Shown piece after piece: positions 32,143 through 34,841 of a stretch of 64,000 nucleotides of DNA. The notes under the pieces are model-generated. The model had not been told where the DNA came from. It saw only the letters and a program-made list of their open reading frames with translations, and searched no databases. The stretch lies in sequence record PP239276.1. One strand, given 5' to 3'. The first letter of the stretch is position 1. The number at the start of each line of letters is the position of its first letter. This DNA comes from Escherichia phage BME3. The position numbers were made by a program, and so were the translations under genes.

Positions 32143-33876
32143 TTAGTCAACCTGGATGGTTCCCATAGTACGAAGAACCTCTACGTCAACACGGTTGCGG
32201 ATATCAGTGAATGTTTCATCACGTCCTTCTACTTGTGGTGTAATAACCTTACCATCTTTGAAGATAACTTGTAACTCATTGTCTTCATCCTGGATATCTT
32301 TAAAAGAAAGATTATCTACAAGAGAAAGATTACCATTAGTATCCTTAACAACCTTAATAAAACCTTTTGCAGAGCGTTTACCAGGATCAGTTTTAGGCTC
32401 CTTACTTACCAAAATTTCGTGTTCACCGATGATGCTACCTGTTGCTTTAACAGCAAAGCCAAAAGTATCTCGTGTATTGAACTGATAAGTATAACTACCA
32501 ACACCAAATACAATATTGGAAGCAGCAAAGCCTTTCTTCTTCAGTCGGCGTAAGATTTCGTGTTCTCGTTCAACAGTAATAGAATCACCATAAATCATAC
32601 CGATGTGCTGATCAAGAACCTTGTAGCCTTTTCGGTTGATAGTACCGCCAAACACTTCCCAAAGGATTTGAATAGAACCTACTGCTTCACAATAAGGAAT
32701 CTCATAAGTTTCATCAATACAATCAGCAACGCTACAATCCTGAAGAACATTGTAATACTTATTAACATCAGCCAAATGAACTACTTCAGTGGCTGTCGCA
32801 ATACCATTATTTAAAAGGTCTTCATAGTTATCAAAAGATTCAACATTGTATCCTGCAACAACTTTAACCGGATCTCCTGAATCTGGACGAATAACAAGAC
32901 GACCATTTCGTGACATAATGGACTCTTTCAATTCTACCAGAATGCGAGTCAAGACAGCCCAGTAATCATAAGAATCTGCTACATATGAACAAAAACCTTC
33001 TGGAACAATTTCTTCAATATAGCGGCGAAGAAACTCTTTCTCTGCTACATAACGAAGCCCATCAACATCATCTTTAAGATGTGGGAAATGTTTCTTCAGA
33101 TCTTCAACAATAGCTCCAATGTTAGTCGTTGCTACTGAATGTTCTGTTGCCGGAATAGAACCTGCAACAAATTGATCATAATCAATACCATAATAATCAT
33201 GCACAGTTTCAATAGCCAGAATATTATCTGTTCCTGTGAAAGATGCCAAATGAGCGATACCACTCTTATAACCATCTTCGATATTGCTTAAGCCACGTAG
33301 ACTAAAATCATGACACTGGAAATTAACGTGATCAATGTTATCACACGTTGCCATCGCATACGCCATAGCGATACGCTTATACTGAAAAGCTGCTGTGGCA
33401 TTAGTCATTGTCTTCCAAGTTTCATCTGACAAGAGTGTTTCAACATAGTTAGTTAACCAAAAGAATTTTTCTAAAGTGTTATGCACAGTAAACACAGGAA
33501 CACCAATAGGGCACAAAACACCTTCTGGCAGAGATCGAACTTCTAGCGGAAGATAACCTAAATCGTGCAATTCTCCCCAACATTCAGCAGAAGGAGCAGA
33601 AGCACCTAATGCATTTTTAGACATACGATAAAATTTATTTACTGCTGCACTACGAGACATTTTAAAGAAGCTGTCCCACATAGTTACAAGAGCATCAGTA
33701 ACTGCTCGACGAATACCTAAAACAATAACACCACGTGCTTCACGATCTGCATAATGTGCAAAGTTTTTATCATTACGAGGAGTTAAATTAGAGAAAATGA
33801 GTTTTGTATTTTGGTTGTACATCTGCTTGTGACCAGGTTTATACCAATCAGTAGCAAAAGGTGCAAAAATATTCAT
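32143..33876 (-). CDS. nadV: nicotinamide phosphoribosyltransferase (NadV/NAMPT-like)
   Basis: 577-aa ORF; N-terminal DWYKPGHKQMY and overall size fit the NAMPT family. Confidence 0.75.
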   Translation of the reverse strand: MNIFAPFATDWYKPGHKQMYNQNTKLIFSNLTPRNDKNFAHYADREARGVIVLGIRRAVTDALVTMWDSFFKMSRSAAVNKFYRMSKNALGASAPSAECWGELHDLGYLPLEVRSLPEGVLCPIGVPVFTVHNTLEKFFWLTNYVETLLSDETWKTMTNATAAFQYKRIAMAYAMATCDNIDHVNFQCHDFSLRGLSNIEDGYKSGIAHLASFTGTDNILAIETVHDYYGIDYDQFVAGSIPATEHSVATTNIGAIVEDLKKHFPHLKDDVDGLRYVAEKEFLRRYIEEIVPEGFCSYVADSYDYWAVLTRILVELKESIMSRNGRLVIRPDSGDPVKVVAGYNVESFDNYEDLLNNGIATATEVVHLADVNKYYNVLQDCSVADCIDETYEIPYCEAVGSIQILWEVFGGTINRKGYKVLDQHIGMIYGDSITVEREHEILRRLKKKGFAASNIVFGVGSYTYQFNTRDTFGFAVKATGSIIGEHEILVSKEPKTDPGKRSAKGFIKVVKDTNGNLSLVDNLSFKDIQDEDNELQVIFKDGKVITPQVEGRDETFTDIRNRVDVEVLRTMGTIQVD

Positions 33877-33947
33877 AGTTATGTCTCCTTGTTTGTTAGT
33901 GTGGGAGTATCTTACTAAGCATACTCCCTATTGTCAACACTTATTAT

Positions 33948-34841
33948 TTAAAAATTCCACACGTATGGAGATACAATTTGTTGTTGCAAATCTGACTGAT
34001 TCTTAACAAGAACACCGGAATCTTCTTGGATGTTATCTTCCCACACATTAAGAGAATGAATGCAGTCAAAGTGCTCACTTAACTCTTTAAGACCTTTAGA
34101 AAAGATACCGTGTGTAACATATAGCTCAATCTTACCTGCGTTACGAGCACGTAGCACTTTAGCCAATTCGATAAAAGTTCTACCACCATCACAGATATCA
34201 TCTACGATCATCAGGTTACGCTTATTGAAATCCTGTACAGAAATGTCTGTACGAACAATAGCACCTGTTGCAGTATCTCTAACCTTCTCTGCACAGAACA
34301 CATCTAAAGACATTTTCTTAGATAATTTAAATATTTTCTTAAGAGCACCACCATCAGGACTAACAAGAGCAAAATTCTCCATACGTAACTTCCACTTTAA
34401 AGTTTCGTAAGCAATCTCTTCTTGAGGTATTACATAGAGTCTGTCAAACACTGCTGGAGTAACATCGCTATGTGGATCAGCAACGATAACACGTGAGAAA
34501 TTTAATGAATTAATTATAGAAGCAAATGCTTTAACTCCGAATGCTTCCCCAGGCTCACACACTCTGTCTTGTCGTGCATACGGTACATACAGCATGAGTA
34601 AATCAACACAATATGGTTTATGATATAGCATATTGTCCAATGCATTCTTAGTCATAACCAAAGTCATCAAGTCTTTAGCAGATCTTACTTCTAAAGAGAG
34701 TAAGATTCTGTCTGTAGCATGATTGAAACCTGATAGATTCGTATCTAGTTGAACATGTTGTTCTCCACCAGAGAATGTAAAGACTTTAACGTCTACATCA
34801 GTAACATAACAGTCAACACCATGTAGAATACTAACTTTCAT
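33948..34841 (-). CDS. prs: ribose-phosphate pyrophosphokinase (PRPP synthetase)
   Basis: 297-aa ORF with VPYARQDR and MIVDDICDGGRT (PRPP-binding loop) motifs. Confidence 0.75.
   Translation of the reverse strand: MKVSILHGVDCYVTDVDVKVFTFSGGEQHVQLDTNLSGFNHATDRILLSLEVRSAKDLMTLVMTKNALDNMLYHKPYCVDLLMLYVPYARQDRVCEPGEAFGVKAFASIINSLNFSRVIVADPHSDVTPAVFDRLYVIPQEEIAYETLKWKLRMENFALVSPDGGALKKIFKLSKKMSLDVFCAEKVRDTATGAIVRTDISVQDFNKRNLMIVDDICDGGRTFIELAKVLRARNAGKIELYVTHGIFSKGLKELSEHFDCIHSLNVWEDNIQEDSGVLVKNQSDLQQQIVSPYVWNF

Follow-up and report, generated by a model that had tools for sequence, protein, structure and literature searches.

A probable NARP1 operon for NAD+ reconstitution in a phi92-like coliphage

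Two adjoining genes of a phi92-like coliphage (Justusliebigvirus; ~98% DNA identity to phi92) very probably constitute a core operon of NARP1, NAD+ reconstitution pathway 1, a system of two genes, Adps and Namat (Osterman et al. 2024). We put the probability of this reading, in which no PRPP, NMN or NMN adenylyltransferase (NMNAT) would be involved, at roughly 0.9. The first gene, adps, lies at 33948–34841 on the minus strand of the window (the whole stretch of 64,000 nucleotides analysed here) and encodes a 297-aa Prs-like protein, the putative ADP-ribose pyrophosphate synthetase. The second, namat, at 32143–33876 on the same strand, encodes a 577-aa NAMPT-like protein, the putative nicotinamide ADP-ribose transferase. 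An earlier note on this DNA had described two open reading frames of the Prs and NAMPT families spanning 32143–34841; the exact limits were confirmed and profile matches agree with the families. The pair is identified by the families and clades to which its proteins belong, by their diagnostic motifs and intact catalytic residues, by the order of the genes, by the lack of an NMNAT, and by near-identical proteins already catalogued as NARP1. Enzyme activities and an anti-defence phenotype, demonstrated for SPbetaL1, ICP1, Bas63, and FADO, are predicted here by homology.

The gene pair is already known, as its phi92 counterparts were catalogued as NARP1 by Osterman et al. (2024). Tables S1/S2 of that study list phi92 FR775895_00103 among the Adps homologues, with ‘Yes’ for Namat association in the phi92-type row, and its supplementary tables label FR775895_00104 an ‘Adps-associated’ Namat. 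The genes of phi92 and other Justusliebigvirus phages are essentially those of the window, with 2 aa differences between the window Adps and phi92 gp107 and 7 between the window Namat and gp108. GenBank and RefSeq still name the phi92-type pair ribose-phosphate pyrophosphokinase and nicotinamide phosphoribosyltransferase.

Published biochemistry defines what such a pair may do. The purified Prs-like enzyme of Bacillus phage SPbetaL1 (Adps) converts ADPR and ATP to ADPR-PP and yielded nothing in the Prs-type reaction, while SPbetaL1 Namat converts ADPR-PP and nicotinamide directly to NAD+ and prefers ADPR-PP over PRPP; together the two enzymes make NAD+ from ADPR, ATP, and nicotinamide (Osterman et al. 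2024). Deletion of the Bas63 operon caused a ~20-fold plating loss on SIR2-HerA hosts, and ADPR-PP was detected in vivo (Osterman et al. 2024). Structures and activity of the Adps of Vibrio phage ICP1 have also been reported (NAR 2026, PMC13586617). We hypothesize that when a host defence NADase (e.g., SIR2-HerA, type I Thoeris, or DSR2) splits NAD+ into ADP-ribose and nicotinamide, Adps (33948–34841) would pyrophosphorylate the ADP-ribose to ADPR-PP, and Namat (32143–33876) would then allow nicotinamide to displace the pyrophosphate of ADPR-PP, regenerating NAD+ directly. The earlier proposal of NAD+ restoration and of a counter to NAD+-depleting immunity agrees with this assignment, by analogy with the characterized systems.

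The chemistry proposed earlier was different, and it was not supported. There the 297-aa protein was taken as a true PRPP synthetase supplying PRPP, and the 577-aa protein as a true NAMPT producing NMN, which host NadR/NadD or a phage NMNAT would finish to NAD+. In favour of that reading, the names given in Pfam, NCBIfam, PHROG, and the deposited records are Prs and NAMPT, and Namat homologues can form NMN from PRPP in vitro. The same route was the discoverers’ own first, annotation-based hypothesis for this operon and was later refuted by them (Osterman et al. 2024). SPbetaL1 Adps is inert in the Prs-type reaction yet makes ADPR-PP, Namat offered both PRPP and ADPR-PP gave NAD+ as the sole product detected, and counter-defence by the Bas63 operon was unaffected by deletion of host nadR and pncC (Osterman et al. 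2024). The window proteins fall in the clades of these homologues, which make ADPR-PP and then NAD+ directly, and several of their features, described below, also speak against PRPP and NMN as intermediates.

The 297-aa protein matches the general Prs family (TIGR01251, 119 bits against a cut-off of 113; phrog_619, 5.5e-91; Pribosyltran and Pribosyl_synth), but lies far under the cut-off of every Prs equivalog model (NF002320, 99.5 vs 297; NF002095, 99 vs 296; others lower). It is 40% identical to ICP1 Adps (158 bits) and 35% to Bas63 Adps (136 bits), within a moderate range of 28–40% identity to validated Adps enzymes; against canonical PRPS the highest score in the PDB is 58.8 bits, and identity to E. 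coli Prs is 25%. In a small neighbour-joining tree rooted on E. coli Prs as the single canonical outgroup, it is sister to the structurally characterized ICP1 Adps with 93% bootstrap. Similarity scores and tree place the 297-aa protein in the phage Adps clade, not with cellular Prs.

Residue-level comparison points the same way. The donor loop reads D214-D-I-C-D-G-G-R-T-F223 in the window, DDICDGAASF in ICP1, DDICDGGRTF in Bas63, and DDMIDTGGTL in E. coli Prs, and takes in the PP loop (ICP1 C215–S220), a donor-binding element whose remodelled form is conserved across Adps proteins. The D-T-x-G-T loop that holds the phosphate of ribose-5-phosphate in canonical PRPS is not kept, C-D-G-G-R-T standing in place of I-D-T-G-G-T. 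Catalytic residues, whose inactivation the earlier note had named as a point to check, are intact in both proteins (Adps K186; Namat H246 and R330); Adps K186 corresponds to K185 of ICP1 and K162 of SPbetaL1. All acceptor-site residues of ICP1 (R87, H121, D161, D212, D213, and D216) are conserved as R90, H124, D163, D214, D215, and D218. At the adenine-contact positions, ICP1 F18 aligns with F23 of the window protein, but ICP1 F92 aligns with Cys95, a point against the Adps reading, although this position also varies among validated Adps enzymes, being Met in Bas63 and a gap in SPbetaL1 and FADO. The C-terminal alpha11–alpha12 filament module of PRPS is lost, since nothing in the window protein or in any aligned Adps corresponds to the E. 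coli Prs segment LSGMLAEAIRRISNEES, and the window protein also shares the N-terminal deletion of Adps proteins.

The 577-aa protein matches PF04095 (2.6e-37), NF006629 (462 bits, cut-off 405), and phrog_448 (3e-188). By the same method it scores 398.6 bits against the SPbetaL1 Namat structure (PDB 9W5X/9W5W) and ~174 bits against mammalian Nampt. Identity to validated Namat enzymes is moderate at 39–44% (39% to Bas63 Namat in a full-length alignment, ~44% to SPbetaL1 Namat). The published Namat signature, GS-X-Phi-X-Phi-X-Phi-TRD, is matched exactly by G460-S-Y-T-Y-Q-F-N-T-R-D470, in which Y462 and F466 occupy the positions that stack on adenine. True Nampts are without this adenine clamp; VCPH NadV, Mx1 Nampt, and rat Nampt carry GG(G/A)LLQ at the site. 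The catalytic core includes H246 and, within IRPDSGDP, R330 (SPbetaL1 R306, human R311). The selectivity-clamp loop, described as variable, has Arg, Lys, or Tyr as its third residue and a stacking residue at position three or four; in the window (N35-D36-K37-N38-F39) Lys is third, as expected, but the fourth residue is a non-aromatic Asn, which counts against the Namat reading; the aromatic residue is fifth, as in PAK_P2 (K-I-Y). A small neighbour-joining tree separates the Namats of the window, Bas63, SPbetaL1, FADO, PAK_P2, and Crossroads, along with 9KE8, from VCPH NadV, Mx1 Nampt, and rat Nampt with 100% bootstrap. By its sequence, the 577-aa protein therefore belongs to the Adps-associated Namat clade, apart from the NMNAT-linked Nampts.

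One structure in this comparison, PDB 9KE8/9KEO, is probably a bacterial homologue. It scores 343 bits against the window Namat and carries the motif GAQTYQRNTRD, and the phage protein nearest to it, SPbetaL1 Namat, reaches only 58%.

Gene neighbourhood and clade membership also bear on a more general role, in which a Prs-like enzyme would raise PRPP for phage nucleotide synthesis and have no part in immunity. The genome is rich in nucleotide-metabolism genes, and ribonucleotide reductases and a thymidine kinase are encoded nearby. However, PRPP supply leaves unexplained why Adps-clade genes adjoin a Namat gene in 97% of cases in a published survey (Osterman et al. 2024), and the Adps and Namat motifs and clades argue against it, so that we consider this role improbable in the extreme. 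An Adps gene is recognized by a Namat gene within ten genes; in the window the two are directly adjacent.

No NMNAT was found in the window or in the complete phi92 genome by tblastn, phmmer, profile search, or a scan for the GxFxPxHxGH motif (best E 0.06–0.9). The queries were E. coli NadD and NadR, VCPH NatV, and Mx1 NMNAT, which cross-detected each other as positive controls; the remainder of the window’s own genome was judged from the ~98%-identical phi92. None emerged from the annotation of phi92 either, nor when candidate genes were checked against Pfam. Phi92 gp158, a ‘nucleotidyltransferase’, was considered as a hidden NMNAT and rejected, as it has only a sub-threshold match to a poly(A)-polymerase head, which is not an NMNAT family. 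These searches bear out the earlier observation that the window lacks an NMNAT. The accompanying suggestion that a host or distant phage NMNAT performs the last step is not upheld, since NARP1 needs none, and the full-genome search proposed with it found none in phi92. Because the window proteins fall in the Adps and Namat clades with their diagnostic motifs, and near-identical phi92 proteins are catalogued as NARP1, the missing NMNAT is expected and does not mark a gap in the pathway. Taken with the enzymology and the sequence features above, this makes salvage through PRPP and NMN very unlikely.

A mixed use would retain NARP1 as the main route while Namat also takes host PRPP to NMN, which host NadR would convert to NAD+; under ADPR shortage this would act as a NARP2-like supplement. 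In vitro, PRPP-dependent NMN synthesis is indeed retained by SPbetaL1 Namat and by its clamp mutants, and E. coli encodes NadR. With both substrates present, however, NAD+ alone was detected, and nadR/pncC deletion left Bas63 counter-defence unaffected, so we regard such a supplement as unlikely.

The two genes are separated by 71 nt, and no terminator-like site was found between them. A sigma70-like promoter candidate, recognized by consensus match only (TTGACT-N17-TAGAGT, 9/12; 34881–34909, minus strand), lies ~40 nt 5′ of the adps start codon. An AAGGAG ribosome-binding site read from the sequence (34849–34854, minus strand) precedes the adps ATG by 7 nt, and the phi92 annotation has a ribosome-binding site at the equivalent position. 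A second AAGGAG (33885–33890, minus strand), also read from the sequence, stands 8 nt before the namat ATG. ARAGORN places 16 tRNA genes at 28518–31395 on the same strand, so that the pair lies upstream of the array, the nearest tRNA gene being ~750 bp away. A ‘hypothetical tRNA’ annotated in phi92 inside the Namat gene was not supported, as ARAGORN gives no tRNA there in the window.

The spacer contains a better promoter-like match than the site upstream of adps (TTGACA-N17-TAAGAT, 10/12; 33909–33937, minus strand). It is one member of a motif, TTGAC-N18/19-TAAGAT, found four times in the window vs 0.2 expected, with three of the four sites directly 5′ of consecutive genes in the adps/namat region; generic promoter-like matches in the region were not enriched (18 vs 13.8 ± 3.6 expected). 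Because the spacer holds this better site of an over-represented motif, namat probably has a promoter of its own besides read-through from adps. The earlier picture of co-transcription from a sigma70-like promoter by the tRNA array thus stands in its promoter candidate, the uninterrupted spacer, and the downstream array, but needs qualifying with respect to namat. A perfect 8-bp inverted repeat (GGGAGTAT/ATACTCCC, 10-nt loop; 33903–33928, minus strand) overlaps the -10 element of the internal promoter candidate. Its predicted RNA fold has -15.3 kcal/mol (z = -2.8; 1 of 200 shuffles equally good), with no U-tract 3′ of the repeat, and it is possibly an operator or an element of RNA stability or processing.

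Among characterized systems, the NARP1 operon of Bas63 (JohannRWettstein; bas63_0079–0080) is comparable in having a Prs-like gene followed by a long NAMPT-like gene across a short spacer, and an E. coli host. Protein sizes are 293 and 593 aa in Bas63 vs 297 and 577 aa in the window, both Namats being long forms that carry insertions at two shared sites, although the insertion sequences are poorly conserved. The Adps loop DDICDGGRTF is identical and the Namat signature motif is shared. However, Bas63 is a Felixounavirus, identity to the proteins of the Justusliebigvirus window is only 35% for Adps and 39% for Namat, and in the selectivity loop Bas63 has Trp at the fourth position where the window has Asn, with Phe fifth. 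Relative to ICP1 Adps and to SPbetaL1 Adps and Namat, the catalytic Lys, acceptor-site Arg/His/Asp, donor PP loop, and Namat adenine clamp are all kept; the Adps loop of SPbetaL1 and FADO reads DDLSS(F/Y)GG vs DDICDGG in the window, and the two insertions are absent from SPbetaL1 Namat.

NARP2 systems (Nampt and NMNAT; Vibrio phage KVP40, VCPH natV–nadV, and Myxococcus phage Mx1) also restore NAD+ and share the NAMPT-family catalytic core, but they require PRPP and an NMNAT gene, which the window and phi92 lack, and their Nampts have no aromatic clamp motif and form a clade separate from the window Namat. Canonical class I PRPP synthetase (E. coli Prs) and Nampt (mammalian, Xanthomonas) have the same folds and the same sequence of pyrophosphoryl transfer followed by displacement of pyrophosphate by nicotinamide; in NARP1, ADPR replaces ribose-5-phosphate as the acceptor, the regulatory and filament modules are lost, and Namat has gained the adenine clamp.

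The NARP1-AP variant (Adps, the Macro phosphatase Adpp, and Namat; Vibrio phage Gary and PAK_P2-type) has the same Adps/Namat core as the window, but includes a Macro-domain gene within two genes. None lies within two genes of the window pair, the flanking open reading frames (73, 88, 122, 65, and 79 aa) having no Macro match and being too short, and no RyR-domain (RyDEP) or Macro (Adpp) accessory gene was found in the operon. An unlinked Macro-domain protein, gp185, is encoded in phi92 ~65 kb from the pair and outside the window. It is conserved in ~54 phi92-like genomes and shows 45% identity to a protein of PAK_P2 that is catalogued as NARP1-associated, an Adpp-type ADPR-1′′-phosphate phosphatase. 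It was invisible to the published screen, which covered only two genes around the pair.

At 36845–38288, ~2 kb away and on the strand opposite to the pair, are genes for a cREC ‘cyclic-phosphate processing’ receiver-domain protein and a metallophosphoesterase, read by default as RNA repair beside the tRNA array. A 39%-identical homologue of the metallophosphoesterase lies 2.3 kb from PAK_P2 Adps, and neither gene occurs in the Bas63, ICP1, SPbetaL1, FADO, VCPH, Mx1, or Crossroads loci examined; with one PAK_P2 neighbour and absence at seven loci, linkage to NARP genes is too weak to claim. The Macro, cREC, and phosphoesterase proteins could return ADPR-1′′-P, the aRES product, and ADPR-cyclic-phosphate, which forms when ADPR-PP breaks down spontaneously, to ADPR. 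That phi92-like NARP1 is the core of such a dispersed ADPR-recycling network, not a stand-alone pair, is doubtful; if true, counter-defence would extend to aRES and a leak in the pathway would be plugged.

The main value of the NARP1 assignment is a correction. PRPP synthetase and NAMPT are still the names given at family level by Pfam, NCBIfam, and PHROGs and in almost all phi92-like genomes on deposit; they lead even careful readers to assume an incomplete salvage route through NMN and to seek the missing NMNAT. Two motifs, DDICDG in Adps and GS-Ar-T-Ar-Q-Ar-N-TRD in Namat (Ar, aromatic), offer a quick test of NARP1 vs NARP2 in raw sequence. By analogy with the characterized systems, the pair would be self-sufficient, a complete and already published pathway for recycling what host NADase effectors produce. 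The phage would not be expected to escape type II Thoeris, nor aRES unless the distant Macro protein helps; it is predicted to escape SIR2-HerA, type I Thoeris, DSR1/2, and SEFIR-type NAD+ depleters.

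We identified two minus-strand ORFs encoding a 577-aa NAMPT-like protein (32143-33876) and a 297-aa Prs-like protein (33948-34841), with exactly the limits and the families proposed in the earlier note. The 577-aa protein belongs to the NAPRTase/NAMPT family (PF04095, 2.6e-37; NF006629, 462 bits, threshold 405; phrog_448, 3e-188) and the 297-aa protein to the Prs family (TIGR01251, 119 bits, threshold 113; phrog_619, 5.5e-91). About 55 phi92-like (Justusliebigvirus) coliphage genomes are ~98% identical to this region, and the whole window is colinear with positions 18676-83873 of phi92, a close relative whose complete genome served as a proxy. 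Only two stretches of the window (1280-3145 and 52344-52721) gave no megablast match to phi92 of 400 bp or longer, which makes them candidates for replacements or insertions specific to this lineage. At 98.7-98.8% identity, the region is matched best by the unannotated GenBank records MG065639, MG065645, MG065656, and MG065689, titled ‘Campylobacter phage’ and assigned to C. jejuni as host. Every other close relative is an enterobacterial phi92-like phage, and these host labels look doubtful.

A ‘Prs + Nampt’ operon was noticed in four BASEL phages and initially assumed by its discoverers to produce NMN, which was later shown to be otherwise (Osterman et al., bioRxiv 10.1101/2024.02.11.579819). 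Deletion of Bas63 genes 79-80 sensitized the phage to SIR2-HerA, and ADPR-pyrophosphate (ADPR-PP) was detected during infection. When purified, the Prs-like enzyme of SPbetaL1 converted ADPR and ATP to ADPR-PP, and the NAMPT-like enzyme formed NAD+ from ADPR-PP and nicotinamide, preferring ADPR-PP over PRPP. The same authors coined the names Adps, Namat, and NARP1 (NAD+ reconstitution pathway 1). Their supplementary tables include phi92 FR775895_00103 among Adps homologues, mark a phi92-type row (sequence end ...VSPYVWNF) as Namat-associated, and list FR775895_00104 and JohannJBalmer orthologues as ‘Adps-associated’ Namat. The window proteins differ from those of phi92 by two (Adps) and seven (Namat) residues, and Bas63 plus three phi92-like phages fit the four BASEL phages of the discovery paper. 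The pair belongs to a system that has already been published, and its phi92 orthologues were catalogued before. Judging from its sequence, we put the probability that it functions as NARP1 at roughly nine in ten.

The weak scores of the 297-aa protein against Prs models are a warning sign against a Prs assignment. It cleared the generic subfamily model TIGR01251 only narrowly and failed all Prs equivalog models widely (e.g., 99 bits where 297 are required), and its best solved canonical PRPS relative reached only 58.8 bits. We compared validated NARP1 loci (Bas63, MZ501086; ICP1; SPbetaL1; FADO) and the further loci PAK_P2 and Crossroads, with E. coli Prs as control, using diagnostic features from ICP1 Adps structures (PMC13586617). 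Identity of the window protein to ICP1 Adps, its sister with 93% bootstrap, is 40% (158 bits), and to Bas63 Adps 35% (136 bits), versus 25% for E. coli Prs. Its donor loop, DDICDGGRTF, is of the Adps type and identical to that of Bas63; ICP1 has DDICDGAASF, whereas E. coli Prs has DDMIDTGGTL. The acceptor-site residues R90, H124, D163, D214, D215, and D218 are conserved. Like other Adps, the protein has an N-terminal deletion, and the alpha11-12 module found at the C-terminus of PRPS is missing. The ICP1 adenine contact F92 is a Cys here, at a position also variable among validated Adps.

The NAMPT-like protein scored 398.6 bits against SPbetaL1 Namat and ~174 bits against mammalian Nampt (phmmer, PDB sequences), and shows 39% full-length identity to Bas63 Namat. 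It matches exactly the published Namat signature, G460-S-Y-T-Y-Q-F-N-T-R-D470, with Tyr462 and Phe466 at the adenine-stacking positions; these diagnostic features derive from SPbetaL1 Namat structures (PDB 9W5X/9W5W; PMC12774641). By contrast, rat Nampt and the NMNAT-adjacent Nampts of Vibrio phage VCPH (natV-nadV) and Myxococcus phage Mx1 carry GG(G/A)LLQ at this site, and the window protein groups with Namat, apart from the NMNAT-linked Nampts, at 100% bootstrap. The variable selectivity loop fits in part: Lys37 is third as expected, but the aromatic residue is fifth rather than fourth. Two insertions (residues ~253-282 and 343-399; 33031-33120 and 32680-32850, minus strand) account for a ‘long-form’ Namat of ~560-590 aa. 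They are absent from SPbetaL1, FADO, and Crossroads Namat and from all Nampts, whereas Bas63 and PAK_P2 Namat have insertions of different lengths and poorly conserved sequence at the same positions. A solved ‘nicotinamide phosphoribosyltransferase’ (PDB 9KE8/9KEO), 58% identical to SPbetaL1 Namat, also nests within the Namat clade; its signature site, GAQTYQRNTRD, lacks both adenine-stacking aromatics.

The earlier note had Prs supplying PRPP and NAMPT making NMN, with a host or distant NMN adenylyltransferase (NMNAT) completing the pathway. This mechanism is wrong, as NARP1 homologues use ADPR-PP and the window proteins carry Adps and Namat motifs. Inactive catalytic residues, which the note had named as counter-evidence, were not found: Adps K186 and Namat His246 and Arg330 (SPbetaL1 R306, human R311) are all intact. 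Its observation that the window lacks an NMNAT was borne out. Using E. coli NadD and NadR, VCPH NatV, and Mx1 NMNAT as queries, searches of the window and the complete phi92 genome by tblastn, phmmer, a small profile, and a signature-motif scan returned no hit with E below 0.06; in control loci the same queries recognized each other. The phi92 annotation lists no NMNAT, and its only ‘nucleotidyltransferase’ gives only a sub-threshold match, to a poly(A)-polymerase head. The absence of NMNAT distinguishes NARP1 from NARP2 (Nampt + NMNAT); NARP1 is complete without it, and no host or distant NMNAT is needed.

The sequence agrees with co-transcription from a dedicated promoter, as also proposed earlier, with one qualification. 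A sigma70-like candidate (TTGACT-N17-TAGAGT, 34909-34881, minus strand) precedes the adps ATG by ~40 nt, an AAGGAG ribosome-binding site is present, and no terminator-like site was found between the genes. However, the 71-nt spacer contains a better match (TTGACA-N17-TAAGAT, 33937-33909, minus strand). The motif TTGAC-N18/19-TAAGAT occurs four times in the window (31700-31729, 32122-32150, and 33909-33937, minus strand; 55055-55083, plus strand) against 0.2 expected by chance, and three of these sites immediately precede genes that follow one another on the minus strand: namat and two ORFs of 73 and 88 aa. The motif resembles a promoter class specific to the phage, with TAAGAT as its -10 element, and namat probably has its own promoter besides read-through. 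A perfect 8-bp inverted repeat, GGGAGTAT / ATACTCCC, with a 10-nt loop (33903-33928, minus strand; RNA fold -15.3 kcal/mol, z = -2.8) overlaps the internal -10. Without a U-tract behind it, the repeat is not a terminator, and may instead act as an operator or in RNA processing or stability. Since no terminator-like site was found between namat and the tRNA array, transcripts may run on towards that array.

The array (28518-31395) lies downstream on the same strand and comprises 16 tRNA genes, three with a CAT anticodon, interspersed with small ORFs such as one of 109 aa (29626-29955) without a Pfam match. A ‘hypothetical tRNA’ annotated inside the phi92 Namat gene (49736-49886) is probably spurious, as ARAGORN found no tRNA within window namat. 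Upstream of adps, gene orientation switches at a 410-bp divergent intergenic region (34842-35251) containing AT-rich palindromes (34915-34947) and a GC-rich hairpin (35065-35078). GC skew changes sign there, from negative before ~34 kb to positive after ~36 kb.

In some NARP1 operons the two core genes are accompanied by one for a Macro-domain ADPR-1''-phosphate phosphatase (Adpp; NARP1-AP) or for a RyR-domain glycosidase. Neither was found within two genes of the window pair, which is the two-gene core form. About 2 kb away on the opposite strand (36845-38288) are a cREC_REC ‘cyclic-phosphate processing receiver’ gene (36845-37219; 124 aa; PF20274, 1.4e-13), a 120-aa protein (phrog_839), and a 183-aa calcineurin-like phosphoesterase (phrog_547). 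By default we read these genes as RNA repair functions; that they recycle ADPR-cyclic-phosphate is speculation. A 39%-identical phosphoesterase homologue lies 2.3 kb from PAK_P2 Adps; the cREC gene did not recur in the other loci examined. Outside the window, phi92 gp185 (238 aa; 14526-15242 of stretch L006) has a C-terminal Macro domain 45% identical (E = 2e-38) to the PAK_P2 protein listed as a NARP1-associated Macro/Adpp. Its gene lies ~65 kb from NARP1, with a PRTase_3 (ComF-like) gene, a HAD hydrolase, and tellurite-resistance-type genes as neighbours, and 54 records (~54 phi92-like genomes) carry it at ≥95% identity. However, the protein falls in the T4 Tk.4-type Macro family, which is very widespread (2,908 records). 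Any link of gp185 or the cREC/phosphoesterase genes to NARP1 is tentative. A curious further phi92 gene, gp038 (12318-13130 of stretch L004, outside the window), encodes a Sir2-family protein (PF02146, 2.8e-22), placing a member of an NAD+-consuming enzyme family in the same phage as an NAD+-rebuilding pathway.

The earlier note was right, by homology with NARP1 and its Bas63 deletion phenotype, that the pair restores NAD+ as a counter-defense. By the same homology, phages of the phi92-like lineage would possess both enzyme activities and the counter-defense phenotype.
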